DNA of 64,000 nt, taken from the NCBI GenBank assembly GCA_015491865.1, contig WFVD01000029.1, positions 11,444-75,443 on the forward strand, written 5' to 3'. Source of the DNA: Gammaproteobacteria bacterium (GTDB lineage: Bacteria > Pseudomonadota > Gammaproteobacteria > SZUA-140). Position numbers and translations under genes: made by a program. The notes under the pieces are model-generated. The model was not told the DNA's origin, searched no databases, and was given only the letters and a program-made list of their open reading frames with translations. Within the stretch, counting starts at the first letter, position 1. The number at the start of each line of letters is the position of its first letter. Shown here in pieces: positions 1,342 to 59,962 of the stretch.

Positions 1342-4300
1342 CTACTTACCCTCATTTACTGATTTTGAAAAGAAACGGTACAACGCCGGGATGACAAACA
1401 GGGTTAAAAAGGTGGCTGTTAACAGCCCCCCTACAATCACTGTCGCCAGCGGTTTTTGAATTTCGGCACCAACGCCGGTGGATAGCAGCATCGGGATTAA
1501 GCCCAGCGCAGAGGTGATCGCCGTCATCAATACTGGACGCAGGCGCGAACTTGCGCCGTCGAACACCGCATCGGGAACAGAGAGACCACCCGCAACCCGC
1601 TGGTTAATGCTCTCCACCATCACCACCCCATTGAGTACAGCGACACCAAACAGGGTGATAAAGCCGATAGAACTCGGCACCGAAAGATACTGGCCAGAAA
1701 AATAGAGCGCAAACACACCCCCAATAACCGCCAGCGGCACATTGAGCAGAATCAACATCGCCTGCCCCATGGAGTTAAAGGCAAAATAGAGCAGCAGGGC
1801 GATCAGCGCAATGGAGATCGGCACCACTGTGCTGAGCCGTTTTTGTGCCCGCTGCTGGTTTTCAAACTGACCGCCGATATCGACCGAATAGCCGGTCGGC
1901 AGATCCACCTGCTGCTCAATGGCGAGGCGGATATCGGCCACTACGTTGCCCATGTCGCGCCCCTGCACATTGGACTGAATCACCACGCGGCGCTGCACAT
2001 CATCCCGACGCACCTGCGGTGGGCCCGATTCTATATTGATCTGCGCCACATCACCCAGGCGCACCCAGGCACCGGTGGGGGATTGCAGACGCAGATCGGC
2101 AATGGCATCGGGATTGGTGCGGAACGGTTCGGCCAGACGCACGTAGATGTCATAACGTTCGTTGCCATTGATGATCTGCCCGGCCGCCCGGCCGCCGAGT
2201 CCATCACTCACCACGGCCATCACATCGCCCACGGCCAGGCCAAAACGGGAAAGCTGATCCCGATCAGGCCTGACGATCAACTGCGCCTCACCGGCGATCT
2301 GCTCCATGGCCACATCCTGAGCACCGTCCACACTCTGCACCGCCTTCTCAATCTCTTTGCCTTTCTCTTCCAGCACTGCCAGATCCGGCCCAAACAGCTT
2401 AATCGCCAGCTGCGCCCGTACCCCGGAGAGCAGCTCATCAACACGGGTGGCGATGGGTTGCGAAAAGTTCAGCAGCAGCCCTGGGTGCTGCTCCAGTTTT
2501 AACGCCATCAGGTTTTGCAGGGTCTGGCGATCCGGTGCGCTGCTCCACTGATTCACCGGCTTGAGGCCAATGTAGATTTCAATATTATTGACCGGTTCCG
2601 GATCACCCCCAATCTCAGGGCGGCCCACACGGCTCAGCGCGTAATTGACTTCCGGGAACTCCAGTAACATCGCCTCCAGCTTGGGGGCAACCTCCAGTGC
2701 AGTCTCCAGGCTGGACGAAGGAGCGAGCGTAACACGCAGGTTAATCGTCCCCTCCTCCAGCTCCGGCACAAACTCCGTGCCAATTTGCGGCACCAGCGCC
2801 AACGCAGAAATCAGCAGTAACACCGCACCCGAGACGACAAATTTACCGTGCTGCAGCGCCCAGCCCAGCGCATGACGATAGAGTTTATCTAACGGCCTGA
2901 GCACAAAACTTTCGCGCTGCCGTATGCCGTGACGAAAGAGATAGGTGGCCAGCGCCGGCACAATAATCAGCGCCACAAACAGCGCTGCGATAATCGCCAG
3001 CATGATACTGATCGCCATCGGCTGAAAGAGCTTCGCCTCAACCCCTTCAAAACTAAACAGTGGCATAAAGACCACCAGAATGATGGCGGTCGCGAAAAAG
3101 ACCGGTCGCGCCACCTCTCTGCCCGCCTGTTGCAGGCGCAGTGCAATACCTTCGCCACGGTCGCGGCGTACATCATGTGGATCACGGTCATCGCTGCCAA
3201 CCCGCGCCTGCACCTCTTTATCATGCTCGGCATCGGGATGGGAGAGATGTTTAAACATATTGTCCACCATCACCACCGAGCCATCCACCAGCATGCCAAT
3301 CGCCACGGCAATACCGCCCAGCGACATCAAGTTGGCAGAGAGCCCCAGCCACGCCATCACCATCAGGGCGATACCGATGGAGATAGGGATGGAGATCAGC
3401 ACCAACAACGTGGCACTCAGGTTCATCAAAAAAAGCGCCAACACCACCACAATAAAGACAAAGGCGAGCAGCAGCGCGTTGACCACGGTGGTAACCGCCT
3501 GTGAGATGAGGTCGGACTGGTCATAAAAGACCTCAAACCGCACCCCGTCAGGCAGCGCCTGCTGAATCAGCTTCGCCTGCTGGTTGATACCGTCGATAGT
3601 GCTTTTGGTATTGGCCCCCATCCGTTTTAACACAATGCCGGCCACCACCTCACCCAACGGTTCGGCCTGACCCTGCGCGTTGCGCCGCGTCATGCTCACC
3701 GCACCCTGGCGTATCTCACTGCCGAGGGAGACTTCCGCTACCTGCGACACGGTGACCACGGTGCCATCAACCGTTTTTAACGGAATCTGGCGCAGCTCCG
3801 CCAACCCCTTCTGGTCGTGGCTCAACCAGCCGACACCACGTATCACCAGCTGCTCCTGGCCACGATCCATATACCAGCCACCCGCATTGGAGTTGTTGTT
3901 CTCCAGCGCATCGATCACATCCTGCTGCCTCAGGCCATACGCCAGCAGGCGCGATGGATTCAAATTGACCTGGTATTGACGAACATGGCCACCAAAAGAG
4001 AGTACATCAGTCACTCCATCCACCGGCATCAGCAGTAGCTTGACCACCCAGTCGTTAAGACTTCGCAGGGTCATCGCATCCAGAGTGGAGTCGGCATCGG
4101 TCACCAGCATGTACTGATAGACCTGCCCCAGACCCGAGGTGTTGGGACCAATCTCTGGCGTGCCCACCCCTTCAGGAATCAGCTCTTTTGCAGATTGCAG
4201 ACGCTCAAACACCAGCTGGCGAGCAAAGTAGATATCTGTCCCCTCTTTAAATACCACGGTGATACCCGAGAGACCGGTCTTGGAGATAGAGCGCACCTGC

Positions 4301-4539
4301 TCCACATCAGGCAGCGCGTACATCACCGCCTCAATAGGAAAGGTGATCAGTTTTTCAACCTCTTCAGAGGCGAGTCCCGGCGCTTCGGTATTAATAGAGA
4401 CCTGCACATTGGTCACATCGGGAAAGGCATCGAGATTGAGTTTAGGAATGATAACGGAGGCCGACGCCGCCAGCGCCAGCAGGCCGATGACCACCAGTAA
4501 ACGGTTGGTGACAGACCAGTCGATTAATTTATTTAACAC
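1342..4539 (-). CDS. czcA: Heavy-metal efflux RND transporter, inner-membrane pump (CzcA/CusA family, HME-RND).
   Basis: A 1065-aa ORF with the 12-TM RND architecture and two large periplasmic loops. It is full-length similar to the CzcA/CusA family (N-terminus MLNKLIDWSVTNRLLVVIGLLALAA...). It is flanked by a membrane-fusion gene and an outer-membrane-factor gene. Confidence 0.9.
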   Translation of the reverse strand: MLNKLIDWSVTNRLLVVIGLLALAASASVIIPKLNLDAFPDVTNVQVSINTEAPGLASEEVEKLITFPIEAVMYALPDVEQVRSISKTGLSGITVVFKEGTDIYFARQLVFERLQSAKELIPEGVGTPEIGPNTSGLGQVYQYMLVTDADSTLDAMTLRSLNDWVVKLLLMPVDGVTDVLSFGGHVRQYQVNLNPSRLLAYGLRQQDVIDALENNNSNAGGWYMDRGQEQLVIRGVGWLSHDQKGLAELRQIPLKTVDGTVVTVSQVAEVSLGSEIRQGAVSMTRRNAQGQAEPLGEVVAGIVLKRMGANTKSTIDGINQQAKLIQQALPDGVRFEVFYDQSDLISQAVTTVVNALLLAFVFIVVVLALFLMNLSATLLVLISIPISIGIALMVMAWLGLSANLMSLGGIAVAIGMLVDGSVVMVDNMFKHLSHPDAEHDKEVQARVGSDDRDPHDVRRDRGEGIALRLQQAGREVARPVFFATAIILVVFMPLFSFEGVEAKLFQPMAISIMLAIIAALFVALIIVPALATYLFRHGIRQRESFVLRPLDKLYRHALGWALQHGKFVVSGAVLLLISALALVPQIGTEFVPELEEGTINLRVTLAPSSSLETALEVAPKLEAMLLEFPEVNYALSRVGRPEIGGDPEPVNNIEIYIGLKPVNQWSSAPDRQTLQNLMALKLEQHPGLLLNFSQPIATRVDELLSGVRAQLAIKLFGPDLAVLEEKGKEIEKAVQSVDGAQDVAMEQIAGEAQLIVRPDRDQLSRFGLAVGDVMAVVSDGLGGRAAGQIINGNERYDIYVRLAEPFRTNPDAIADLRLQSPTGAWVRLGDVAQINIESGPPQVRRDDVQRRVVIQSNVQGRDMGNVVADIRLAIEQQVDLPTGYSVDIGGQFENQQRAQKRLSTVVPISIALIALLLYFAFNSMGQAMLILLNVPLAVIGGVFALYFSGQYLSVPSSIGFITLFGVAVLNGVVMVESINQRVAGGLSVPDAVFDGASSRLRPVLMTAITSALGLIPMLLSTGVGAEIQKPLATVIVGGLLTATFLTLFVIPALYRFFSKSVNEGK

Positions 4540-4554
4540 AGTCTTTCTCCCGGT

Positions 4555-5841
4555 TTAATGGTTATGCGGATCAAACCCGCCTTTCGCCATTTCAGACTGC
4601 ACAAAAAAAGCGCCCTTACCGACAATGGTCGTGCCTTCGGCAACGCCTTCGATCAGCATACGGTCACCCACGGTCTCCAGCACTTTAATCTCTTTCGGTT
4701 CAAAGCGGTCAGGCGCGCTCTGCACAAACAGCTGCCAGTCACCGTCGGGGCTGCGCAACACGGCCTCAACAGGCACAACAATACCGTCACGTTTATGGCT
4801 TCCTTCGATCACGGCGGTCACAAACTGGCCGGGGTGGAGTGCGTCATCGCGATTTGCCACTTCAATGTGGACAGCCAGGGTGCGCGTCGTCTCATCGAGG
4901 GTGTGACGCGCCTGCGTCACTTTTCCGCTCAGCCACTGATTGCCGACCTGAATACGCGCAGGTGACCCCAGTTCGATACGGGCAGCATCTTCCGGCGTCA
5001 GGCGCGCTTCGACCCACAGCAGAGACTCATCGCTAATCGTCATCAACACATAACCTGGTTCAATCAGTTCACCAACAACAAAGCCGTCACTGATGATGGT
5101 GCCATCCTGGAATGAGAGCAGATGAAATTCACCCGTAGCACGAGTCGCATCACCTGTCTCGATCAGGGAGTTGATCTGTTTTCTGGTCATGCCGTAGGCG
5201 CTAACTCTGGCATAGGCCTGTTGATAAGCGATCTGCGCGGCAACAAAACGTTTTTCGGAAACCACTTTACGACCCAGTTTTTTAACCCGTCGCAGTTCGA
5301 CATTGGCCTCCATCAGGGCACCTTGCGCCTCCGCCATCTCGACACTGGAGAGCGTCACCAGGCGCTCACCTTTTTTAACATGGTCACCAAGGCGCGCATG
5401 ACGCGCCATCACCTGCGCCGGGGTTCGCGGGGTCACGATGGTGGTGCGATAGGCGTTGAGCATCGCCTCGCCGGGTGCCTTAATTGCATCGCCCAGTGAC
5501 TGGCGCCTGACAACCATTGTCTCTATCCCTGCAATGCGACGCTGCTCAGTGCTCAATTCAGCATCACTGGCCGCTTCACCATGGCCATGGCCGTCGTCTT
5601 CCCCACCGTGACCACCATGATCACCATGCCCCTGCTCTTCATGCCCATCATCTTCGTGGTCATGCCCCTCTTTTTCATGTTGATGGCCTTCATCATCATG
5701 GTCATGTTTTTCTGTCGCTATCTCGATGCCTGAGAAATCATCCATACCATCCTCTTCACCATGGTGATGCCCTTTTTCAGCTAACAGAAGAGTGGGGGTA
5801 GAAAGGCTCAATAACATTAATAAAACAAGTCTGTTTTTCAT
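4555..5841 (-). CDS. czcB: RND efflux periplasmic adaptor (membrane fusion protein, CzcB/CusB-like) with a His/Asp/Glu-rich N-terminal extension.
   Basis: A 428-aa ORF with a signal/anchor sequence followed by a ~70-aa H/D/E-rich stretch (HHHGEEDGMDD...HDHDDEGHQHEKEGHDHEDDGHEEQGHGDHGGHGGEDDGHGHGE). The biotinyl/lipoyl-like and beta-barrel MFP core follows. A 15-nt gap separates it from czcA. Confidence 0.85.
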   Translation of the reverse strand: MKNRLVLLMLLSLSTPTLLLAEKGHHHGEEDGMDDFSGIEIATEKHDHDDEGHQHEKEGHDHEDDGHEEQGHGDHGGHGGEDDGHGHGEAASDAELSTEQRRIAGIETMVVRRQSLGDAIKAPGEAMLNAYRTTIVTPRTPAQVMARHARLGDHVKKGERLVTLSSVEMAEAQGALMEANVELRRVKKLGRKVVSEKRFVAAQIAYQQAYARVSAYGMTRKQINSLIETGDATRATGEFHLLSFQDGTIISDGFVVGELIEPGYVLMTISDESLLWVEARLTPEDAARIELGSPARIQVGNQWLSGKVTQARHTLDETTRTLAVHIEVANRDDALHPGQFVTAVIEGSHKRDGIVVPVEAVLRSPDGDWQLFVQSAPDRFEPKEIKVLETVGDRMLIEGVAEGTTIVGKGAFFVQSEMAKGGFDPHNH

Positions 5842-5845
5842 TTTT

Positions 5846-7180
5846 TTACTCTCCAGAATTCTTTGGCTGTGCGATGCTGGTCGGTGCTAGACCTAGCCAG
5901 TCGTCAACCTGACCAGAAGCATCCAGCCAGCCGATTGCCGCCTGCCAGACCTCACCTTTCAGGGTTGTGGCTGCCGTCTGGGTATCGATGTTCTGTTTGG
6001 CCTGAATCAAAAAGTCGGTTGCGGTCAATTCACCCGCCTGCCACATCTGCTCCAGCAGTTTCATCTGTTCTCGATGCGCCTGTTGACCCGTGGCCACCCA
6101 GGCTCGCCACGCACTGGCGGTACTGTTAAAGCGCCCCAGGCTTCCTTCAAGTCGGGCGCTGGCGCGGCGGTATGCATCGCGGTAAATCAGCTCCTCAGCA
6201 GTGGCCTCGTGAGAGGCGACCAACACTTCAGCCTTAAAGTTATTGCGTACAAATAGTGGGATTTCAAAGCTCAGTCCGAGCAGCGAGTCAGAGCCGTCAC
6301 GACCGGCACGAAGCCCGATAGTGGGATCTGCGCGACTTTCACGTTTAATGAGGTCGATCCGTGCTTTCGCCGCCTCCATACGGCTGCGTAACACCGTAAG
6401 CGCAGGCAAGGAGTGGAGCAGTGTGGTATCCACCCGCGCCGGTGGAGATGCCAGCTCACCTGGTAGCTGCGGCCACTGCGCCAGCTCTGAACCGGCAACA
6501 AACCCGGTAACAGCCTGTAGTGCCGCTTCGGCCTGAGCCAGCTCACTCTCACTCGCCGCCTGCTGCATCAGGGCCTCACTATAGGTAACCTGGGCCAGGG
6601 TTCCTTCCAGCGCACCCATATCCCCCGCCGCCTGGCGCTGCTTCACTGCATCGATAAACCCTTTCATTAACTGGCTACGACGCTGTGCCAGCGCCAGCAT
6701 CTCCTGCGCAGTGGCGTACTGTGTCAATGCGTTCAGGGTTTCGACTGCAATACGCTGCCGGGTCTCTTGCAATTCGGCACTGACGGCCAGCACCTCCTGG
6801 TCAGCAATACGGCTCTGAGCCTCACGCTTGTCATTCCAGTCCAGCGTTTGATTAAAACCGATTGAGGTTGTGTTGACACCCGTTCGCTCAGCATCGATGA
6901 CCAGATCAGGGTTGTAGATGGGCCGCCCCGCACCATCAGCTCGCGCCATAGCGGCTTCAACAACAGCATCTGCCCCCTGCATCGCCGGGCTCTCTGCCCA
7001 GACCTGCTGAATAAAAGCTCGCAACGCTGGATCAACCTTGAGCTGACCATTAGCGCTAATCGATAGCGACGTTTGATTCAATTCGGGGGCGACTGCTTTA
7101 TAGTCAGCCGCAGCTGCAATCCATCCAGGAAACAACAGGCAGGCGAACAGGCCCGTCAATAGATATCTTTTAGAAAACAT
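5846..7180 (-). CDS. czcC: Outer-membrane efflux protein (TolC/CzcC family outer membrane factor).
   Basis: A 444-aa ORF with a signal peptide, an OEP-type duplicated helical/beta architecture, and coiled-coil-rich Ala/Gln/Leu repeats. It lies 4 nt upstream of czcB on the same strand. Confidence 0.8.
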   Translation of the reverse strand: MFSKRYLLTGLFACLLFPGWIAAAADYKAVAPELNQTSLSISANGQLKVDPALRAFIQQVWAESPAMQGADAVVEAAMARADGAGRPIYNPDLVIDAERTGVNTTSIGFNQTLDWNDKREAQSRIADQEVLAVSAELQETRQRIAVETLNALTQYATAQEMLALAQRRSQLMKGFIDAVKQRQAAGDMGALEGTLAQVTYSEALMQQAASESELAQAEAALQAVTGFVAGSELAQWPQLPGELASPPARVDTTLLHSLPALTVLRSRMEAAKARIDLIKRESRADPTIGLRAGRDGSDSLLGLSFEIPLFVRNNFKAEVLVASHEATAEELIYRDAYRRASARLEGSLGRFNSTASAWRAWVATGQQAHREQMKLLEQMWQAGELTATDFLIQAKQNIDTQTAATTLKGEVWQAAIGWLDASGQVDDWLGLAPTSIAQPKNSGE

Positions 7181-7262
7181 TAGCTCAATCCTTCAAATAC
7201 TGAAGAGGGAAATAGCGCGCATAAAACTGCGCAGCATGCAGAAAAAACAGCAGTAGAAAAAT

Positions 7263-7583
7263 TTAAATGATGGGGGGTCTTAGGAGTGGAGCAATATAGC
7301 GCAGCGCTAACACAGGGGATAGCGCCACAAAGCCTTCATGACCGCTGGCCATGAATGGTGAGGATTGATTGAAGATAAGCCCTATCAGATGAGCGGCACT
7401 ATGACAGCAGTGGTCATCCTGATGCACTACACCGTTATCGGGCTGCTCACTGCTGACCTCAATTAACAGATCAATCGCAGCCGAATTATGCCCTGCTATC
7501 GCCTCTGGATGGTTATCCAGGGCAAAGGCTAGTCCTGAACTCAGGTTGGCTAACAGCAGCAGACAGATCAGTAGTTTCTTCAT
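7263..7583 (-). CDS. Small secreted His/Cys-containing protein, CzcI-like putative periplasmic metal-binding/regulatory protein.
   Basis: A 106-aa ORF. The N-terminus MKKLLICLLLLANLSSGLAFA is a signal peptide. The mature part contains HPEAIAGH and DDHCCHSAAH motifs. It occupies the czcI position immediately upstream of czcC on the same strand, as in czcNICBAD-type operons. The assignment rests on position and motifs only. Confidence 0.4.
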   Translation of the reverse strand: MKKLLICLLLLANLSSGLAFALDNHPEAIAGHNSAAIDLLIEVSSEQPDNGVVHQDDHCCHSAAHLIGLIFNQSSPFMASGHEGFVALSPVLALRYIAPLLRPPII

Positions 7584-7687
7584 GGTGGGCGCTAATTTAG
7601 GTGAATCGTTGTCATCCTGTCAACAGAAAAATAGCAACATCAGATGCTATGCAGGCTTTATCGGCAGACCGCCTGTTCACATTAAAC

Positions 7688-23477: not shown

Positions 23478-24662
23478 ATGCCACCAAACTCACCTTCTGA
23501 TGATACTAGCTGTAATGTCATAACCGATAGCTCATTTAAAATCCGCCTTATCCCCGCTATGAGTACCCCTCTTGCTTCAATTTTTGGTAGCGGCTTTCTT
23601 GTGGTTGTCCCGATTTTAGCGAGTGCGGTGGGGCCTTACGCATTACCTGCAATGGTTATTGTCGCGTTTGTCGCCTTTCTGGTAGGCAGTATCGTCAGGC
23701 ATAACATCCACTGCGCCGAACATGCATTAGCCAAAGGCGCCAGGCCTATTACACGCTATGCTGAGCAACTCTCCGCACTTGCGCTGGTGGCCGCTTATGT
23801 AGTTTCAGTCTGTCTCTATGTTCACATACTCTCTTCATTTGTGCTGGCTAGCTTTGACCTTGACAGCGCATTTAATAAAAGCCTGCTAACAACCATTATT
23901 ATTGGCACCATCACGGTGATCGGCCTGTCTGGTGGACTCAGGCCGCTAGAAAAACTTGAAAGCTGGGCACTCTATATAACCATTGCACTGCTTGCTCTGT
24001 TACTTGTGATGTTTGCTGTTTATGACATCAACCAGTACCTCACACTTGGCCAGCTCATGCTGCCCGAGATGCCCGACCGCAGCACTTGGGAGATTGTTAC
24101 CATTGTCGCAGGCACGCTTATTGTTGTTCAGGGGTTTGAAACCACGCGCTATTTAGGAGAAAATTTTGATGCTGCAACCCGCATTCAGGCGTCACGCTGG
24201 GCACAATACTTTTCACTCGCTGTTTATATTTTATTTGTTGCACTAGCCCAGCCCATCGTACCGGTATTGAATGGCGTTTATGGCGACAACAGCCTGATCA
24301 CGCTGGCCGCCACCGCATCACTGCTGCTACCCATCCCTTTAATTATTGCTGCGGGAATGTCCCAGTTTTCCGCTGCCGTAGCAGATACAGTGGCGGCAGC
24401 AGCCAACCTGAGAGAGACAAGCAGACAGCGGATAGATACACGCTGGGGTTATCTGCTTGTCGGGGGGAGCGCTATGCTGCTGGCATGGTCCGGCTCCACA
24501 TTCGAAATCATTGCACTCGCATCACGCGCGTTTGCATTCTATTATTTACTGCAATGCATTGTGGCTTTTTCTGTTTGCCGAAACGTAAAAGAGCGCGCGC
24601 TATTTATCTTTATTGGCGCTATTTTGACCTTTGTTCTGATTTTTGCGGTGCCTGCAGGCTAG
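23478..24662 (+). CDS. Polytopic inner-membrane protein, distantly APC-superfamily permease-like. Uncharacterised.
   Basis: 394 aa with roughly 10-11 predicted hydrophobic helices. The N-terminal GSGFLVVVPILASAVGPYALP resembles the APC consensus G(S/A)G(I/F)F..P......GP. No closer family match was recognised. The true start may be the internal MSTPLAS (23559). Confidence 0.4.
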   Translation: MPPNSPSDDTSCNVITDSSFKIRLIPAMSTPLASIFGSGFLVVVPILASAVGPYALPAMVIVAFVAFLVGSIVRHNIHCAEHALAKGARPITRYAEQLSALALVAAYVVSVCLYVHILSSFVLASFDLDSAFNKSLLTTIIIGTITVIGLSGGLRPLEKLESWALYITIALLALLLVMFAVYDINQYLTLGQLMLPEMPDRSTWEIVTIVAGTLIVVQGFETTRYLGENFDAATRIQASRWAQYFSLAVYILFVALAQPIVPVLNGVYGDNSLITLAATASLLLPIPLIIAAGMSQFSAAVADTVAAAANLRETSRQRIDTRWGYLLVGGSAMLLAWSGSTFEIIALASRAFAFYYLLQCIVAFSVCRNVKERALFIFIGAILTFVLIFAVPAG

Positions 24663-33043: not shown

Positions 33044-33970
33044 GTGACCCTAACACAGATAACATTACTGATGGTGCTATGCGGCATCGCACTACTTATC
33101 TCGGCGCTTAAGCCGATTAGAAATATTTTCGCCTGCAAAAACCAGGCGGGGCATGGCTGGCGCACCCTCTACCGCTTTATATTCCTGCTGGCTGGTGGCT
33201 ATCTGCTCTTCGGCTATCATCTTGTAACAGGCGAAGCAACCTTTAACGAGCTAGTAGCAGCAGCGGCCTTGCTCGGCAGCGGCTGTTTTATCTTTATGGT
33301 GAGCCATCTTAGCCTGAAGGGCATTCGTAACCTGAATGATGCTGTTCAGGTTGAGCGTTACCGCGCGCTGCACGATCCGCTGACATCACTCCCCAATAGA
33401 ATTCTCTTTTATGAACGTATTGATCATGCGCTCAGTTTTGCAAAGCGGGAGAAAAAAGAGATCGCCATCATGATTATCGACCTCAATGAGTTCAAAGAGG
33501 TTAACGATACCCTTGGTCACCAGGCGGGTGACACCCTACTTCTACAGGCATCACAGCGATTAAAAAGCCTGCTACGAGAATCGGATACACTGGCCCGTTT
33601 TGGCGGTGATGAGTTCGCGATTATTCTCCCTCAAACCGAAAAAATGCAGGCCTACATGTTAGCCGAACGCCTGACAAGCGCCATTCTCGAACCATTTACC
33701 ATTGAGAGAAAGTCGTTGACGATCGGCATGAGTGTCGGAATTTCCATGTACCCACACCATGGAAGTGATAGCAATACATTAATCAAGCATGCAGATATTG
33801 CGATGTATAGCGCTAAAAGATATCAAAAATCATTTTTACTCTTCAAGGAGGAGATGCAAGAGGAGCCAGGCGTTAATCTCAACCTGAACCTCAATCTGGA
33901 TCTTGTACATGCAGCCTCAGTACAGGGGCAGCACCGAACTGCCGAAAATGAAAAGCGAGTGCTTAACTAA
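33044..33970 (+). CDS. Membrane-anchored diguanylate cyclase (GGDEF domain).
   Basis: Two to three N-terminal TM helices, then a GGDEF domain with an intact RFGGDEF active site and an RxxD-like I-site context. GTG start. The C-terminus has an (NL)n low-complexity tail. Confidence 0.8.
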   Translation: MTLTQITLLMVLCGIALLISALKPIRNIFACKNQAGHGWRTLYRFIFLLAGGYLLFGYHLVTGEATFNELVAAAALLGSGCFIFMVSHLSLKGIRNLNDAVQVERYRALHDPLTSLPNRILFYERIDHALSFAKREKKEIAIMIIDLNEFKEVNDTLGHQAGDTLLLQASQRLKSLLRESDTLARFGGDEFAIILPQTEKMQAYMLAERLTSAILEPFTIERKSLTIGMSVGISMYPHHGSDSNTLIKHADIAMYSAKRYQKSFLLFKEEMQEEPGVNLNLNLNLDLVHAASVQGQHRTAENEKRVLN

Positions 33971-39839: not shown

Positions 39840-41060
39840 CTAGTCCGACCGGCCGACCTCATCAGCCCAGGCAATCGCTTCACAATAGAGTCCGGGAACA
39901 CGCGCCTCATCGATCCCTAACAGCTCGACCATTTCAGAGACCTGCTGCCACTCCGCCTGCTGATAGGCGATGATCAGCTTCAGTATGTTTGCAGCCGGAG
40001 TGCCGCCATCGATCAACGCCTCCTTCACCTCATCAGAAATATTGATTTCATCCAGGATCTCTTCAATCGGACGATCAACCAGCGCATCGACAACCGACAA
40101 CATGCCGATAAAAAACAGATCTAGCTCCTTGCCTTTCATCGAGACATCCGCAGCGATCAACTCACAAAATGAGGCCCGTACCAGTGAGGTCGTTAGCAGT
40201 TCCGGCGGCTTATCCTCTGCAATACTGGAAAATGCAGCAAGAGCAGCCCATTTTCTGAGTGGGCGCTCACCCAGCATCACTAGCGCCTGCCTGATCGATT
40301 CAACCTTCTTGCGCCAGCCGAAGGAGACCGAATTAATATAGCGTAGTAACTTATATGACAGCGCTATATCATGTTTAATGATTCTTTCCATACTGGAAAA
40401 ATCAAGATCAGGCTGGTTGAGCTCCTGTAGAAAGCGGAGATAATTGAGCTTAAACCCCGGTATATCCTTGCGCGAAACCACCTCTGGTTTACAAAAGAAA
40501 TAGCCCTGGAAATAGGAAAAACCAAGCGCTAATGCCTCCTGATACTCGGCATGGCTCTCAACCTTCTCTGCCAGCATCAAAAATGGCTTATCTGCAAAGC
40601 GCTGACACAGCGCAGTACGCTCTTCCTTTGATGAGACAATAAAATCGATCTTCACAATATCTGCCAGTGCCAGCAGTGGTTCAAATCTCGCCTCATAGAC
40701 AAAATCATCCAGCACGACTCGGTAACCATCCTTTTTCAGCTTCTGACAGGCTGCAATCACCGCTTCATCTGGTTCAACGGTCTCCAGCACCTCAACCGCC
40801 ACCTGCTCTCTGGGGATTACCGTTATCCACTCATTCAGTAACACGGTACGCGTCAGGTTGATGAACGCGGTCTTACCGCCAGTCAGGCTATCGAGTCCAA
40901 AACCAAACATGCTGTCATTAATGACGGCAGAGGATGCTTCATCGCCATTGTGATGATTAAAATAGTTATCCAGACTGGAGCGATAAAGCAATTCGTAGGC
41001 GTAGACCTGCCCACTACGGTCAAAGATTGGCTGCCGCGCTACATAAATTTCTCCAGACAC
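39840..41060 (-). CDS. EAL-like domain + HDOD domain signalling protein; the EAL loop-6 motif is non-canonical.
   Basis: The N-terminal ~250 aa are EAL-like (QPIFDRSGQVYAYELLYR, EVLE, KIDF), but DDFVYEARF replaces the canonical DDFGTGYSS. The C-terminal ~150 aa are HDOD-like. Confidence 0.65.
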   Translation of the reverse strand: MSGEIYVARQPIFDRSGQVYAYELLYRSSLDNYFNHHNGDEASSAVINDSMFGFGLDSLTGGKTAFINLTRTVLLNEWITVIPREQVAVEVLETVEPDEAVIAACQKLKKDGYRVVLDDFVYEARFEPLLALADIVKIDFIVSSKEERTALCQRFADKPFLMLAEKVESHAEYQEALALGFSYFQGYFFCKPEVVSRKDIPGFKLNYLRFLQELNQPDLDFSSMERIIKHDIALSYKLLRYINSVSFGWRKKVESIRQALVMLGERPLRKWAALAAFSSIAEDKPPELLTTSLVRASFCELIAADVSMKGKELDLFFIGMLSVVDALVDRPIEEILDEINISDEVKEALIDGGTPAANILKLIIAYQQAEWQQVSEMVELLGIDEARVPGLYCEAIAWADEVGRSD

Positions 41061-43834: not shown

Positions 43835-45400
43835 CTATAGATAGTTAAACAGCGACAACCCCTGAATACGCATATAGGACTGCTGCGCCGCTTCAAGTGC
43901 AACTTGCTGTTGATTAAGGCGTGTTATCGCTTCGGTATAGTCGAGATCCTGTAAATCTGAGATCGTTTCCTTGATTCGCAGTAAGTAACCTTCATTGAGG
44001 CTTTCCTGAGCATCAACGGCATTAAGGCGGGAGCCAATTTGTGCCCGCGCTGCGCGGAAATTATCCATCGCACGGTCAACATCGGAGAAAAATCGGTTAA
44101 TATCATTATTAAGCCGGGCTTGATCAGCAGGTGAACCAGTGCCGCCGTTTTCCAGTGCAACCACAAGGTTTCGAACCGTGGTAAAGACATCCTGGTTCAG
44201 GCTTGGGCTAATAGTGAAGCGGTCTCCCACATTCGGAGTGCCGATCACGTTGGTCTGAATGCCATTAAATGCGATGGAGCCACCACTGGTATAGTTACCC
44301 GATGCTTCACTGTTTCCCGTGCTATCTTCCACCAGATAGAAATCAGCAGCACTATTTAACGTCGAGGTAGCACTCGGCATAGTCGTGCCATTTAACGTTG
44401 CGCCAAAATAACCAGTCATACTATCCAGATCACCATCCGAAGCACCGCCCATGGTCTCAGTGATGGTGATAGGTGTCGCATCTGGTGAGGTGTTTGCGAG
44501 GTAGAGACTCCCCCCATCCACATACGCTCTGACCCCAGTTGCAGCGCTAGCATTATTTATTTCAGCCGCCAGTCCTGCCAATGTATTGACCGGAGAGGCA
44601 TCCGCTTCATCAGTGGTATAAACCGTGCTCCCGTTGATCTCCAGGGTATAATCAAGATTATCAGCAGTGGCTAGATTATCGCTAAACGTTGCTGTTCCTG
44701 TCGCACTGGTGGCTACAAAGAAAGTGATATTGTAACTATCGCCATCAATTAATGAGGGGTTGGTAACACTTCCAGGGTCTATCACGCCGCTGCCCGTGTT
44801 TGACTGATTATCAAAAGTTGTAAAGGTACCATTCCCGTTGCGGATTTCGCGAAAGGTCGAGGTTCCAGAGTCCGTCACCGCAATTTGGCGATTGTTCCCT
44901 ATTTGAATCAGGCGCTGTCCATCATCCCCATTGTAGGTATAAGGACCTGTTTCGGTTGCAGAAAAAGGCTGTGTATTTCCCTGATAACCAGCAAAAAGAT
45001 ACTCCCCCCCGGCATCCTGTGAATTGGCAAGCCCTAACAGTTCGTTCAGACGCTCTTTTACTTCAATTGCCAGTGTCGTGAGATCTTGATTAGTAATGGT
45101 GGGGTTGTTAGCCTGGACAGCTAATTCGCGTACGCGGTCAAGTGCGTTGGTCACACCTGAGATCACCTCTTCTTCTAGTTCAAGACGAGAACGGGAAAAA
45201 TTAATATTCTTCTGAAATTGCTCGGTCACTTTTAGCGTCTGATCAAGACCAACAATCCGCGCTGATGCCGTCGGGTCATCAGCAGGCGTCATAAGACGCT
45301 TACCAGTGGCGAGTTGCTGCTGTGTATTAAGCATCTGTGACTGCTGCTCCAGCATTCGATTCAGACCGCTTAACTGAATTTGCCCGGTTGATATACGCAT
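43835..45400 (-). CDS. flgL: Flagellar hook-associated protein 3 (hook-filament junction), enlarged by a ~150-200 aa variable insert.
   Basis: Flagellin-like N-terminal helix (MRISTGQIQLSGLNRMLEQQSQ...) and C-terminal helix (..LSLFNYL), in 521 aa. It is the last gene of the flgB-L operon. The central insert is shared with FlgK. Confidence 0.8.
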   Translation of the reverse strand: MRISTGQIQLSGLNRMLEQQSQMLNTQQQLATGKRLMTPADDPTASARIVGLDQTLKVTEQFQKNINFSRSRLELEEEVISGVTNALDRVRELAVQANNPTITNQDLTTLAIEVKERLNELLGLANSQDAGGEYLFAGYQGNTQPFSATETGPYTYNGDDGQRLIQIGNNRQIAVTDSGTSTFREIRNGNGTFTTFDNQSNTGSGVIDPGSVTNPSLIDGDSYNITFFVATSATGTATFSDNLATADNLDYTLEINGSTVYTTDEADASPVNTLAGLAAEINNASAATGVRAYVDGGSLYLANTSPDATPITITETMGGASDGDLDSMTGYFGATLNGTTMPSATSTLNSAADFYLVEDSTGNSEASGNYTSGGSIAFNGIQTNVIGTPNVGDRFTISPSLNQDVFTTVRNLVVALENGGTGSPADQARLNNDINRFFSDVDRAMDNFRAARAQIGSRLNAVDAQESLNEGYLLRIKETISDLQDLDYTEAITRLNQQQVALEAAQQSYMRIQGLSLFNYL

Positions 45401-45402
45401 TA

Positions 45403-47709
45403 CTACCTACCCATGGTGTTAATCAGGGTCTGGAACAGGCTATCCGCTGTGGAAATGATCTGTGCGGCTGCCTGGTAAGCCTGCTGAAACTTCATCATGT
45501 TTGCAGCCTCCTCATCCAGGTTAACTCCGGATATAGACGCCCGTTCTTCCAGGTTCTGTTGCAAAATACTATTGAATGCGCTACTGCTTACATCGGCCTG
45601 ACGCGTCTGAGAGGCGACATCGGCGACTAAACGCCCATAGATATCATCGTAGCTAGCACTACCATTATCGAGCAGCAGGCTTGTCTGTAGTGCCGCTAGC
45701 TGCAATGCGTTGCGGTTATCACTAACACCGCTGGTATTATTCTCTATGGTAAAGCGATCACCGCTATTGACCGCGCCAGAAACAGATGCGGCAATTCCAT
45801 TAAATGTTATCGCAGCACCTGAAGTATAAGTGCCACTGGTTTCTGTATTGTTACCACTATTGATAACAATGTAACTGTCAGCCGCGCCCCCGTAAGTAAA
45901 CGAATTGCTTGGAGCGGCACCAGTTAATGCGCTGCCAAAATACCCGGTCACTGCATCCGCACCATCCAGCGGTGTTGCACCGCTATCTAGCAGCTCCTCT
46001 GTCACTGTAAACGGCATAGCACTTGCGGGGTCCTGCGCCATAAAAAGCGTGCCGCTTACATTATCAACATATGCCCTTACGCCGGTTGTAGCAGTGCTGA
46101 GATTGATTTGTGCTGCCAGCGCATCCTGATTTGCCAGTAGCGGATCACCTTCATTCTGGGTATAGACAGCAGTCCCGTTGATCATCAGGCGGTATTGAAG
46201 TGCATTAGCAGTGGTAGCGTCATCATTGATAGCACCTATCGCGACGGCATCTGCATCCCCTCCTGTTGCATCAGCCATCACCACTGAATAGCTATCAGGC
46301 ACATAAGCGACGGCATCTGTTACGCTACCCGCATCAATCGAACCCTCACCAGTGTTACTTAATTCATTTGAAGTGCGCACTGGCACTGCCATCGCCAGAC
46401 TCTGCGGTGACGAAACAGCCACATCGACATTGCGTGCAGCATTACGTACCGGCCTGATTAAGAAACTCTCACCATCTGCAATGGAGCCTGAGTTAAGGCT
46501 CAGAGTTAGTCCGTCAACGGTTTCGCTTGCACCAGGAAAGGTGGAGAGCGCCAGAGTGGTGTTGTCATCAAGGTTTGTGAGTGTGTAATTTGCACCATTT
46601 CTTTCTAATCGATAGTTGCTTCCTGTTAACTGACCGACATCCGAAACACTCACACCAATTTGGAATGCAGTACTCGCATTTGTCGAATTTGCCAACACCT
46701 GCGGTCCTGTCCCGCCAAGCGAATCAAAAAAGTCATTGCCGACAACTCCGTTTAGATCGGCTCCCAGGCGGTATTGGGTGTTAAATGTTTCAACCAGCCC
46801 CATCGCGATGAAGCCAAGGCCATCCTGCGCTGAGTCAAGCAGCTGCGTTCTAAAACCCAGCATCCCACCCAATGAACCTCCCGTAAGCTGACTTGAAAGC
46901 TCTACTGCACCCGACCCTGCAGGAAAACCTACTTCAGTCTGCTCGGGGTCAAACGAATTGTTCATCGTCAGAAGATCTCGCGAATCAAAACCAGTCACCA
47001 CGGCCTGGCCATTACCGATAAAGACGTTAACAGCGCCATTATCCAGCTCGACTGTTGAAACAGAGACATATTCAGAGAGCTCTAATATCAGCTGATCACG
47101 CTTATCAAGCAGGTCGTTCGGTGAATTTCCATTGCCCGCAGAAAGTGCGCTCGATATCTCCCGGTTCACACCAGCTACTGCGGCGGTCAGGCTGTTAACG
47201 GCTCTAATTTCTGTCTGAATCGTCTGGTTAATGTCACTCCGGATATCAGACAACCCCTGATCAAAACTCTGAAAACGTGCGGCTAACGTCTCGCTTTCAC
47301 TTAGCAATACCTGCCTTGCCGGAATAGAGGCAGGATCATCAGCGACGGTTTGTACGGCATTAAAAAAACTCTGAATACTCGGCATCAAGCCAAAATCTGC
47401 ATCTGCAAGCAGATTATTGACACGACTCGCCTGGGCGTAAAACTCACCATATTGTGCACTTGAAGCGGTACTGGAACGCAGTTGTGATGTGACAAAACTA
47501 TCAAAGGCGCGTTCAATCGAGGATATCTGAACCCCGGTACCAACAAAGCCATACCCAGCCGCATCGGGTGTGCGAGACGACAGTTCAACTCGTTGACGGC
47601 TATACCCTTCAGTATTGACGTTATTGATATTGTTAGAGATCGTTGCCAGCGCCCGCTGAGATGACAATAGACCTGAGATTCCAGATGAAAGCACGCCGCC
47701 GCCAGCCAT
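45403..47709 (-). CDS. flgK: Flagellar hook-associated protein 1 (hook-filament junction), enlarged to 768 aa.
   Basis: The N-terminal rod/hook motif (ISGLLSSQRALATISNNINNVNTEGYSRQRV) and the C-terminal FlgK helix (..ISGVNLDEEAANMMKFQQAYQAAAQII..) are conserved. A long central variable region includes a module homologous to one in FlgL. Confidence 0.85.
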   Translation of the reverse strand: MAGGGVLSSGISGLLSSQRALATISNNINNVNTEGYSRQRVELSSRTPDAAGYGFVGTGVQISSIERAFDSFVTSQLRSSTASSAQYGEFYAQASRVNNLLADADFGLMPSIQSFFNAVQTVADDPASIPARQVLLSESETLAARFQSFDQGLSDIRSDINQTIQTEIRAVNSLTAAVAGVNREISSALSAGNGNSPNDLLDKRDQLILELSEYVSVSTVELDNGAVNVFIGNGQAVVTGFDSRDLLTMNNSFDPEQTEVGFPAGSGAVELSSQLTGGSLGGMLGFRTQLLDSAQDGLGFIAMGLVETFNTQYRLGADLNGVVGNDFFDSLGGTGPQVLANSTNASTAFQIGVSVSDVGQLTGSNYRLERNGANYTLTNLDDNTTLALSTFPGASETVDGLTLSLNSGSIADGESFLIRPVRNAARNVDVAVSSPQSLAMAVPVRTSNELSNTGEGSIDAGSVTDAVAYVPDSYSVVMADATGGDADAVAIGAINDDATTANALQYRLMINGTAVYTQNEGDPLLANQDALAAQINLSTATTGVRAYVDNVSGTLFMAQDPASAMPFTVTEELLDSGATPLDGADAVTGYFGSALTGAAPSNSFTYGGAADSYIVINSGNNTETSGTYTSGAAITFNGIAASVSGAVNSGDRFTIENNTSGVSDNRNALQLAALQTSLLLDNGSASYDDIYGRLVADVASQTRQADVSSSAFNSILQQNLEERASISGVNLDEEAANMMKFQQAYQAAAQIISTADSLFQTLINTMGR

Positions 47710-52245: not shown

Positions 52246-53871
52246 CTAGCGAATATTGATGATTGACTGCGTGATGGTGTCGGCAGTTGAGATCACCTGT
52301 GCATTCGCCTGAAAATTACGCTGTGCGGTGATCATGCCAACAAGCTGTTCTGTCAGGTCAACATTAGAACCTTCCAGCGCACCTGACTGAATCAGCCCCA
52401 GGCCGGATGAACCCGGTTGAGAGATAACCCCCTGACCCGATTCAAATGACTCAGCCCAGGTCGTGTCGCCTAATTGGCGAAGCCCCTGCGGATTGGTGAA
52501 ATTGGCCAGCTGAACCTGACCCAGTATGCGCGTTTGACCATTGGTAAAGCGGGAAAGCACGATCCCCGTATCACTGATATCGATGCCACTCAACTGTCCA
52601 GTGGCATAGCCATCCTGCGTTAATGATGCGACGCTAAAAGCGCTGCCAAACTGGGTGACACTGGAAACATCGACATCCATCACCACCTGTGCCGCGCCAC
52701 CACCTGGATCAAAGGTCAACGTCGGCAACGTTCCGGTGGGCACTGTTAACTGGCCATTGGTATTGAACTGCATCTGCTGCCCTGATGTGCCGGCACCATC
52801 GACCCGGATACCGTCAGAAAAGGTAAACACCTCCCATTCGTTTGCCTGATTTGTTTTTCTGAAATAGGTAGTCAACAGGTGAGCTGTTCCCTGGGAGTCA
52901 AAAATGGTCATTGAGGTGGAGTTGTTATAGGTCGAGGCATCTGTTTCATTGAAGGCGACCTGAGCCGAGCCGTTATTCACCGTTGGTGCAGTCGCTGCCG
53001 ATGAATCGCCATCAGCAGCAGCAGCAGCCAAAGTGATCCCCGCTACGCTGGTTGATACAACCACTGGGTCTTGCGCACCCGTTGCTGTTTCCGGAACCCA
53101 GTTAAAGCTCAGAGAACTGGGCGACGCACTGGCGCCGCTGGTGTCGATGGTTGAAGAGGCTGGAAATGTGTTGCCAGAGACATTATCGCGTAAGATGACG
53201 CTCCACACGTTTGCCGCAGTACGGGTATATTCAAGTTGAACTGACCGCTCAACACCGTAGTTATCGCGCATATTAAATGCCGTACCAACCACGGTAGAGG
53301 AAATCGCGGCATCCTCATCAAGGATGGTGCTGTTCGGTACAGTTAAGCTGGAGCTTGGTGTCGCACCAGGTACTGCAAGTGATGAATTTAGGTTCAGCGC
53401 CATCTCTGCACCTGTAGTCGCCTGGGGGCTAATATTCGAAAAATCCAGCTGCAAAGAACCTGTGGTGTTAGTGAGATTGCCATTACTGTCAGCAATATCT
53501 CCCTGCAGTACCTGCCCCTGGCTGTTGGAAACAAAACCGTTACGATCGACGCCAAAGGCTCCTGCGCGTGAATAGACGCGTACACCATTATCATCCAGCA
53601 CAAACATCCCCTGCCCGCTCACTGCGAGATCCAGGTTATTATCGGTAAAACCAATATTCCCCTGTGAGAACTGCTGTGACACAGAAGAGATCTTGACACC
53701 ACTGCCAATCGCATTGGCTGCCGCACCCAGACCTGACGAGGCAAAAATATCAGCAAACTCGACCCGTGACTTCTTAAAACCTGTAGTGCTGGCATTGGCC
53801 ACATTATTCCCAATGACTCGCAGCTCTGCCGATGCTGCGTTGAGTCCACTTAATGCTGTACGAAATGGCAT
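52246..53871 (-). CDS. flgE: Flagellar hook protein (long variant, 541 aa).
   Basis: N-terminal MPFRTALSGLNAASAELRVIGNNVANASTTGFKKSR and the C-terminal ..GSNVDLTEQLVGMITAQRNFQANAQVI.. are conserved. The central D2-like domain is expanded. Confidence 0.85.
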   Translation of the reverse strand: MPFRTALSGLNAASAELRVIGNNVANASTTGFKKSRVEFADIFASSGLGAAANAIGSGVKISSVSQQFSQGNIGFTDNNLDLAVSGQGMFVLDDNGVRVYSRAGAFGVDRNGFVSNSQGQVLQGDIADSNGNLTNTTGSLQLDFSNISPQATTGAEMALNLNSSLAVPGATPSSSLTVPNSTILDEDAAISSTVVGTAFNMRDNYGVERSVQLEYTRTAANVWSVILRDNVSGNTFPASSTIDTSGASASPSSLSFNWVPETATGAQDPVVVSTSVAGITLAAAAADGDSSAATAPTVNNGSAQVAFNETDASTYNNSTSMTIFDSQGTAHLLTTYFRKTNQANEWEVFTFSDGIRVDGAGTSGQQMQFNTNGQLTVPTGTLPTLTFDPGGGAAQVVMDVDVSSVTQFGSAFSVASLTQDGYATGQLSGIDISDTGIVLSRFTNGQTRILGQVQLANFTNPQGLRQLGDTTWAESFESGQGVISQPGSSGLGLIQSGALEGSNVDLTEQLVGMITAQRNFQANAQVISTADTITQSIINIR

Positions 53872-59233: not shown

Positions 59234-59962
59234 ATGAAGAATAGGAAACCAACTGAAGAACCACCAGAGGTTATTACAGACCCTGGGCGTATATATAAGA
59301 TCATTCACCATGTCTATCAGCAACGAGCGCTGTTAACCGCCCTGTTTCCTGAGCAGGCCTACAAAGGAAACTGCATCATTGTAGGGGTCAACAGAGGAGA
59401 CAAAGAGCTACTCATTAACAAGCTCTCCCCTGAGCTGGCTCACACTCGCTTTATTAAAGAACGCAGCATCGTCTTTATCTCATTGCTTGATGGTGTTGAA
59501 ATCGCTTTTAGGGCCAAATTAAAGTCGCTTATCAATGAAAACAGGGACAGCTATTATCTAGTTAAACTCCCAGAAAGGCTCAGCTATCATCAGAAAAGGG
59601 GCGCATATCGTGCTGATGTGAAATACCATGACCCTATACCGGTCTCCATCTCACTAGATGATGGCAGCCAGCTCAACGGGCTAATTGACGATATATCAAA
59701 CGGTGGATTATCGATATCCTTCGAACGTCATATACCGCTCTCGTTGCAGATCGACAATACACTCGCTTCGTGCAGTTTTACAATCCCTGAAAAGCAGAAC
59801 ATAGCCTGTGAATTGAATATTCGGTTTATACAGCACATCCATGAAAAAACAGCACCCAGGATTGGCGCAAAATTCAGAAAACTCTCCAAAGAGGATCATC
59901 AAAAGATAATGCAGTTTGTGATGAGACTTGAGCGGCTGAAAAGAAGACAACTATTTCAGTAA
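59234..59962 (+). CDS. ycgR: YcgR-like flagellar brake protein (PilZN + PilZ c-di-GMP-binding domains).
   Basis: The 242-aa protein has the PilZ motifs RGAYR (RxxxR) and DISNGG (D/NxSxxG). It is embedded in the flagellar locus. Confidence 0.65.
   Translation: MKNRKPTEEPPEVITDPGRIYKIIHHVYQQRALLTALFPEQAYKGNCIIVGVNRGDKELLINKLSPELAHTRFIKERSIVFISLLDGVEIAFRAKLKSLINENRDSYYLVKLPERLSYHQKRGAYRADVKYHDPIPVSISLDDGSQLNGLIDDISNGGLSISFERHIPLSLQIDNTLASCSFTIPEKQNIACELNIRFIQHIHEKTAPRIGAKFRKLSKEDHQKIMQFVMRLERLKRRQLFQ

Follow-up and report, generated by a model that had tools for sequence, protein, structure and literature searches.

An old two-layer accessory module with a nested flagellin/FliD-type domain is shared by the junction proteins FlgK and FlgL of uncultured Gammaproteobacteria

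The resemblance of the hook-filament junction proteins FlgL and FlgK in their D2 domains has already been published (PMC6155364). In the Salmonella junction, the D2 domains of both proteins face the exterior (PMC12221982), and in that of Shewanella every domain except FlgL D2 and FlgK D3 takes part in linkages between the rings (PMC12291594). Flagellin_IN motifs occur in hook-associated proteins as well as in flagellins (PMC9751261), and flagellin outer domains are known to arise when domains of flagellar genes recombine, with nested duplications among the results (PMC11532411). Here we describe an accessory module shared by FlgK and FlgL in a 64,000-nucleotide stretch of a Gammaproteobacteria bacterium genome (assembly GCA_015491865.1, contig WFVD01000029.1, positions 11,444 to 75,443), hereafter called the window. 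The module is a D2-type β-sandwich with a flagellin/FliD-type IN domain nested in one of its hairpin loops.

The two genes close a standard operon, flgDEFGHIJKL, that is encoded on the minus strand, and are separated by 2 nt. The flgK gene, encoding hook-associated protein 1 (HAP1; 45403..47709 (-), 768 amino acids (aa)), is directly followed by flgL, encoding hook-associated protein 3 (HAP3; 43835..45400 (-), 521 aa), which ends the operon. Both were identified from the list of open reading frames (ORFs), Pfam and phmmer. FlgL matched Flagellin_N (PF00669) at residues 3-140 with 86.5 bits and Flagellin_C (PF00700) at residues 441-521 with 28 bits; its alignment to a solved FlgL chain (5yti_A, E=3e-76) covered residues 1-232 and 367-521, leaving ~233-366 unmatched. 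FlgK matched Flg_bb_rod (PF00460), FlgK_D1 (PF22638, 248 bits), flgK_1st_1 and Flg_bbr_C (PF06429). It aligned to Salmonella FlgK (9go6_A, E=1e-93) over residues 7-443 and 660-764; residues 444-659 are extra relative to the Salmonella protein, which is without the distal domain. Judged by these matches, the identities of both proteins are secure.

A sequence-only reading of the window had proposed that FlgK and FlgL carry a homologous module, placed at 44201-46212. BLASTP of FlgL against FlgK indeed gave a single strong collinear high-scoring segment pair between FlgL 200-397 and FlgK 451-655, in which 97 of 207 positions were identical (47%) with 11 gaps and E=3e-39. When the two modules were compared with each other under SEG masking of low-complexity sequence, the similarity persisted at E=9e-44, against a threshold of 0.01. 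The motifs listed by that reading (GSV(T), DSY, Y.L.ING..VYT, TGVRAYVD, TGYFG..L.G, SG.YTSG..I.FNGI and GDRFTI) all lie inside this segment, in the same order in both proteins. The FlgL copy lies at aa 200-399 (~44204..44803 (-)). The proposed interval cuts short the FlgK copy, which BLASTP and the alignment of orthologues place at aa 451-655 (~45745..46359 (-)). When tblastn was run with either module against the whole window, no third copy emerged, be it in FlgE, FlgD or elsewhere. The two copies share only 52% nucleotide identity, with a longest exact run of 11 nt, so that the likeness is one of protein sequence and not a recent repeat; the same codon is used at 39 of the 98 identical residues.

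Comparison with relatives separated the two layers of the module. The outer layer, ~85 aa formed by its N- and C-terminal parts, is present at the same site in FlgL and FlgK proteins that are devoid of the insert; it is the D2-type β-sandwich found in many FlgK and FlgL proteins of proteobacteria. In most relatives, FlgK comprises 633-681 aa and FlgL 403-417 aa, and alignments place a compact domain of ~85 aa exactly at the module site. This compact domain and the module start with the common motif NTGSG.ID.GSV...D.Y.I and end with Y.SG..I.FNG....G.P..GD.F.I. The window proteins are longer by ~117 aa each, which explains their unusual length, as had been suggested. The idea of one domain placed in both proteins holds for the shared module as such, but not for a single new insert, since the scaffold of ~85 aa pre-exists and only the nested ~120-130 aa are special. 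The insertion point is identical in FlgK and FlgL, in the hairpin that joins strand ‘DSY.I/V..’ to strand ‘..Y.V.D’. In FlgL the nested domain spans aa ~231-352 (44345..44710 (-)) inside this hairpin loop of the β-sandwich. Its FlgK counterpart, at aa ~482-610 (45880..46266 (-)), is recognized by its absence from insert-less FlgK, its Flagellin_IN match in Pfam and its likeness to the FlgL insert, to which it is 42% identical.

The β-sandwich of the module can be superimposed on solved D2 domains of FlgL or FlgK. The comparison with solved structures gave values (of an unlabelled measure) of 12.6 for FlgL D2 of Xanthomonas (5ziz, 35% identity), 11.9 for FlgL D2 of Legionella (7c7z), 10.0 for FlgK of B. 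pseudomallei (4ut1) and 8.9 for FlgK of Salmonella (9go6_A). At the level of sequence profiles, the FlgL module stayed below the gathering score of flgK_1st_1 (PF21158), with 18.5 bits (15.4 bits in the whole FlgL) versus a cutoff of 24.2. In FlgK, two stretches were matched, and at residues 339-420 the flgK_1st_1 match passed the cutoff with 49.9 bits. This region (46450..46695 (-)) is the proximal D2 domain, an older repeat of the same β-sandwich fold, and in orthologues the equivalent segment was matched weakly by a hidden Markov model of the module (independent E-values of 4e-4 to 8e-4). The compact D2 domains of FlgL from Xanthomonas campestris (5ZIZ) and Legionella pneumophila (7C7Z) measure ~85-90 aa, whereas the window FlgL has a domain of ~120 aa nested between the strands ‘DSYNITF’ and ‘FYLVE’. 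Likewise, none of the solved FlgK D2/D3 structures (Burkholderia pseudomallei 4UT1, Salmonella 9GO6 and the Shewanella D3) contains a nested IN-type domain.

Modelled alone, the nested part reached a predicted local distance difference test score (pLDDT) of 92.3, and the model comprises a β-β-α-β-β-β unit followed by a small β-meander. On this model the fold is of the α/β type and akin to that of outer domains in flagellins and in FliD. The best structural match was the outer domain of H. pylori FlaA (value 6.7, again unlabelled; 26% identity), followed by D2-D3 of FliD (5.5-5.8) and D2/D3 of P. aeruginosa FliC (5.2). A profile of the nested part matched the flagellin chain 6b5b_F (E=1.8e-9, 40.9 bits), H. 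pylori FlaA (8.7e-5) and the Sphingomonas flagellin p5 (2zbi/3k8v, 2e-3); the same search found no significant sequence match to FliD (HAP2; D2-D3 in 5H5W, 5FHY and 5H5T), a different protein that caps the filament. The Flagellin_IN family (PF07196) matched FlgL with 24.6 bits, over its cutoff of 22.7, and FlgK at residues 529-555 with 20.5 bits, just under it. The sequence-only reading had considered that there may be repeats of this type; the motif is there, but only once per module. Among 30 family members, Flagellin_IN matched 16 at E<0.01 and flgK_1st_1 matched 14. Two positions of the motif are invariant in all 30 sequences, namely the Ile of ‘..EIN..’ or ‘..QIN..’ (module I87, FlgL 281) and the Asn of ‘ING’ (module N62, FlgL 256). 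Outer domains with Flagellin_IN are known in flagellins (H. pylori FlaA 9YGU, 6B5B_F, Sphingomonas p5 2ZBI/3K8V, P. aeruginosa FliC D2/D3 8ERM). Those of the window differ in that they belong to FlgK and FlgL, are nested inside another accessory domain and have an extra conserved C-terminal part (TE...D..TGYFG..L.G) beyond the 55-residue Pfam motif.

To map the distribution of the module, we searched 1.84 billion cluster representatives exhaustively with a HMMER profile of the two window modules. The search returned 210 matches at E<1e-3, 33 of them at E<1e-30, and the top 65 were classified by their flanking regions. About 24 were of the FlgL type (mostly 510-534 aa, with the module at ~196-404) and about 19 of the FlgK type (mostly 753-775 aa, module at ~447-665). 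The remainder were insert-less FlgL or FlgK proteins matching only the scaffold motifs, and no other kind of protein was found among the 65. In all, the search found ~40 clusters with the full module, whose named sources are uncultured Gammaproteobacteria. The closest is the Chromatiales metagenome-assembled genome (MAG) HyVt-459, with FlgL 98% and FlgK 96% identical to those of the window; Chromatiaceae SZUA-76 and the FO_M_Gamma MAGs are further sources. A word-indexed protein search proved insensitive for this family, with two matches for the FlgL module, 16 for the 30-sequence module profile (nearly all insert-less FlgL) and none for the insert profile.

A scan of reference genomes added 21 related loci, and together with look-ups of neighbouring genes it gave the state of the insert in both genes. 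Both carry it in the window, HyVt-459, three FO_M_Gamma MAGs, the loci L022, L025, L027 and L029 and one JGI contig. Only FlgL has it in L004, L005 and L030 and only FlgK in L032, L033 and L034, while most relatives have it in neither. Only the nested domain, not the scaffold, is lineage-specific. An obligatory pairing of the FlgK and FlgL inserts is ruled out by the genomes that carry one of them, and a partnership between the two is not essential.

Several family members depart from the common architecture. Two FlgL proteins, P0003 (L022:4873-6798, 641 aa) and P0007 (663 aa), have two tandem IN-type domains nested inside the D2 scaffold, and in a third long FlgL (P0027, 645 aa) one copy of the insert was detected along with an extra ~110 aa that did not match it. 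Very long junction proteins combine the module with further domains, as in the FlgL-type P0033 (1343 aa) and the FlgK-type P0017 (912 aa), P0041 (1136 aa), P0052 (909 aa) and L029:1307-3997 (896 aa), the last of which also has a FlgE_D2 match. Near flgL, L029 additionally encodes a flagellin of >740 aa with three IN-type repeats. The FlgK proteins of L004 (3222-5396) and L005 (3219-5396), ~725 aa long, contain no IN-type insert; at the same site they carry one more D2-like repeat in tandem, and the adjacent FlgL has the full module. In L030, a 141-aa ORF without a Pfam match (3563-3988) separates an insert-less flgK (648 aa) from an insert-bearing flgL (516 aa); it showed no similarity to the module.

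Duplication or recombination between these neighbouring genes accounts best for the shared module, and several lines of evidence place this event far back. In a neighbour-joining tree of 48 modules, one bipartition sorted 44 into FlgK-type (K) and FlgL-type (L) sequences. The bootstrap mean of this sorting was 44.3, whereas label shuffling averaged 29.3 and reached at most 37, and for 46 of the 48 modules the nearest neighbour was of the same type. Synonymous sites between K and L copies are saturated, which together with the separate lineages shows that the copying between adjacent genes is old and was not followed by recent gene conversion. Within genomes, K and L copies are 38-45% identical, no more than K-K or L-L pairs of related genomes, as expected if the copies descended independently, and without concerted evolution, from one old copying event. 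The codon and nucleotide statistics and the comparison of identities within and between genomes thus rule out concerted evolution as well as recent gene conversion. The duplication or recombination proposed by the sequence-only reading stands in this older form, not as a recent event. The identical insertion point points to recombination through paralogous scaffold segments. We propose that recombination between the paralogous D2 segments of flgK and flgL, which are adjacent and co-oriented, long ago placed a copy of the nested domain, probably along with its scaffold, from one gene into the other, and that the K-type and L-type lineages would then have been inherited separately and lost or gained independently.

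The scaffolds of insert-bearing FlgK proteins are 36-37.5% identical to FlgL scaffolds versus 30% to those of insert-less FlgK. This leans weakly towards a copy of the whole module from FlgL to FlgK, the evidence being weak because the distal domains of FlgK evolve fast in general, much faster than FlgL D2. In the insert-less locus L015, FlgK (4519-6465) and FlgL (6469-7677) are 44% identical over 149 aa (FlgK 398-541, FlgL 137-282; E=1e-25). In the scaffold columns, its FlgK distal domain is 60% identical to its own FlgL D2, a higher value than it reaches with most other FlgK proteins, which hints at repeated exchange between flgK and flgL D2 segments. Between the window and its closest relative, the ratio of non-synonymous to synonymous substitution rates (dN/dS) amounts to 0.08-0.14 for the modules, compared with 0-0.03 for the remainder of the proteins, with a dS of ~0.3 throughout, and nine of the ten amino-acid differences in FlgL fall in the module. 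A ratio of ~0.1 shows a folded domain that is maintained by purifying selection. Constraint on the module is weaker than on the axial core, as one would expect of a domain at the surface.

Taken together, we favour, with moderate confidence, the reading that the two-layer module is a structural decoration of both junction proteins that goes back to an old copy between flgK and flgL. The surface exposure suggested from sequence agrees with the position of the module, which is that of surface-exposed accessory domains. Judging from the homologous position of D2/D3 in the cryo-electron microscopy structures of Salmonella and Shewanella, it would lie on the outside of the assembled junction. The nested IN domains would then project radially from the two 11-subunit junction rings as a further outer layer. 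There the module would thicken or stiffen the hook-filament junction, or match the junction to a filament that has outer domains itself, and would not be part of the torque-transmitting core. Reinforcement of the junction by D2, through quasi-homotypic contacts, has been proposed before by Hong et al. (PMC6155364).

Three points weigh against this reading. One of the two inserts is missing from some genomes, that of FlgL from L032-L034 and that of FlgK from L004, L005 and L030. The corresponding scaffold domains of Shewanella make no ring-to-ring contacts, which, by analogy, weakens the idea of reinforcement. The flagellin of the organism is not encoded in the window, and a match to outer domains of its filament is presumed. 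A more far-reaching possibility is that the IN domains of the FlgK ring pack onto those of the FlgL ring, and both onto IN-type outer domains of the organism's flagellin, forming a continuous ordered collar or sheath from the tip of the hook to the filament. We consider such a collar unlikely; if it existed, it would be the junction-level counterpart of flagellin outer-domain lattices and would tune stiffness or supercoiling under load.

Other origins of the likeness were weighed against the old copy. The nested domains of FlgK and FlgL could have been acquired independently, by parallel insertion from flagellin or FliD donors: flagellar genes are rich in domains of the donor type, the inserts of FlgK and FlgL group into separate lineages and each is found without the other in some genomes. 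Such a coincidence would, however, have had to strike the same point of the β-sandwich in both proteins. Positions of the FlgK or FlgL type account for all 150 matches listed, and the 65 classified proteins include no flagellin or FliD. Moreover, identity between K and L inserts amounts to 40-45%, whereas the best flagellin matches are far weaker (the 40.9 bits of 6b5b_F; E=3.8e-7 for the L029 flagellin), and we regard parallel insertion as rather improbable. That the likeness is an artefact, stemming from biased composition, a chimeric assembly or gene conversion in the very recent past, is barely conceivable. FlgK and FlgL are both rich in Ser, Thr, Ala, Gly and Asn, and their genes are adjacent, but this explanation is refuted by the E-value under masking, by the divergence of the DNA and by the recurrence of the same arrangement in at least nine other independent assemblies.

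Functions other than a structural one were weighed as well, two of which, glycosylation and adhesion, had been raised by the sequence-only reading and found no support in the window. The nested domains could be ligand-binding or adhesive modules for polysaccharides or surfaces, or decoys for phages or predators, without a mechanical role. The β-domain of Sphingomonas flagellin p5, with one Flagellin_IN motif, has been described as alginate-binding (PMC9751261), the insert profile matches p5 weakly, and the concentration of FlgL differences in the module could be read in the same sense. With 22 copies per flagellum, however, the junction would make a poor adhesin next to thousands of copies of flagellin, and a dN/dS of ~0.1 shows no sign of diversifying selection, so that a binding role seems improbable to us. 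We give still less credence to a glycosylation platform, that is, a Ser/Thr-rich surface O-glycosylated by the flagellar machinery. The FlgL insert does contain 27.9% Ser and Thr, compared with 19% in the whole FlgL, and the genes right after flgL are of glycosylation type in several relatives: a protein of >1299 aa with TPR, GT41, methyltransferase and sulfotransferase domains in L025 (5716-9566; also in L026), a large TPR-repeat protein truncated where the JGI contig ends, NeuB in L032 (6637-7533) and a Polysacc_synt_2-type dehydratase in L033 (6673-8304). Yet the site after flgL is the usual place of flagellin glycosylation islands, whose target is flagellin, and L032 and L033 lack the FlgL insert altogether. 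The window itself has recJ, cheX and an EAL-HDOD gene after flgL, and a search throughout the 64 kb turned up no glycosylation genes.

Other features of the window were noted in passing. FlgE (52246-53871 (-), 541 aa) is covered by Pfam families at residues 3-127, 302-422 and 495-540; the ~170 unmatched residues in between (128-301) may be another accessory hook domain. The cluster of flagellar and chemotaxis genes has genes of cyclic di-GMP signalling at its flanks (33044-33970, 39840-41060 and 59234-59962), which encode a GGDEF protein, an EAL-HDOD protein and a YcgR-like PilZ protein, and CheX, CheR, CheV, CheA and CheW are also encoded in the window. A 394-aa ORF at 23478-24662 (+) has no Pfam family at E<1e-5.

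The shared module is thus an old domain duplication between neighbouring genes, yet of an ordinary kind of flagellar domain shuffling, and it leaves the current picture of flagellar architecture unchanged. What the locus contributes is a specific and rare combination: in a group of uncultured Gammaproteobacteria, both junction proteins carry, as old paralogues, an outermost D2-type sandwich into which an IN-type domain is nested. Shuffling of outer domains has been described for the flagellin of Geovibrio thiophilus (PMC11532411), whereas here both junction proteins are affected. The module therefore provides a clean, datable case in which the shuffling of flagellar accessory domains reached two junction proteins as well as flagellin. 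The family is small and well defined, and its natural variants, with the insert in both proteins, in FlgK only, in FlgL only or in neither, form a comparative set for the role of peripheral domains at the hook-filament junction.

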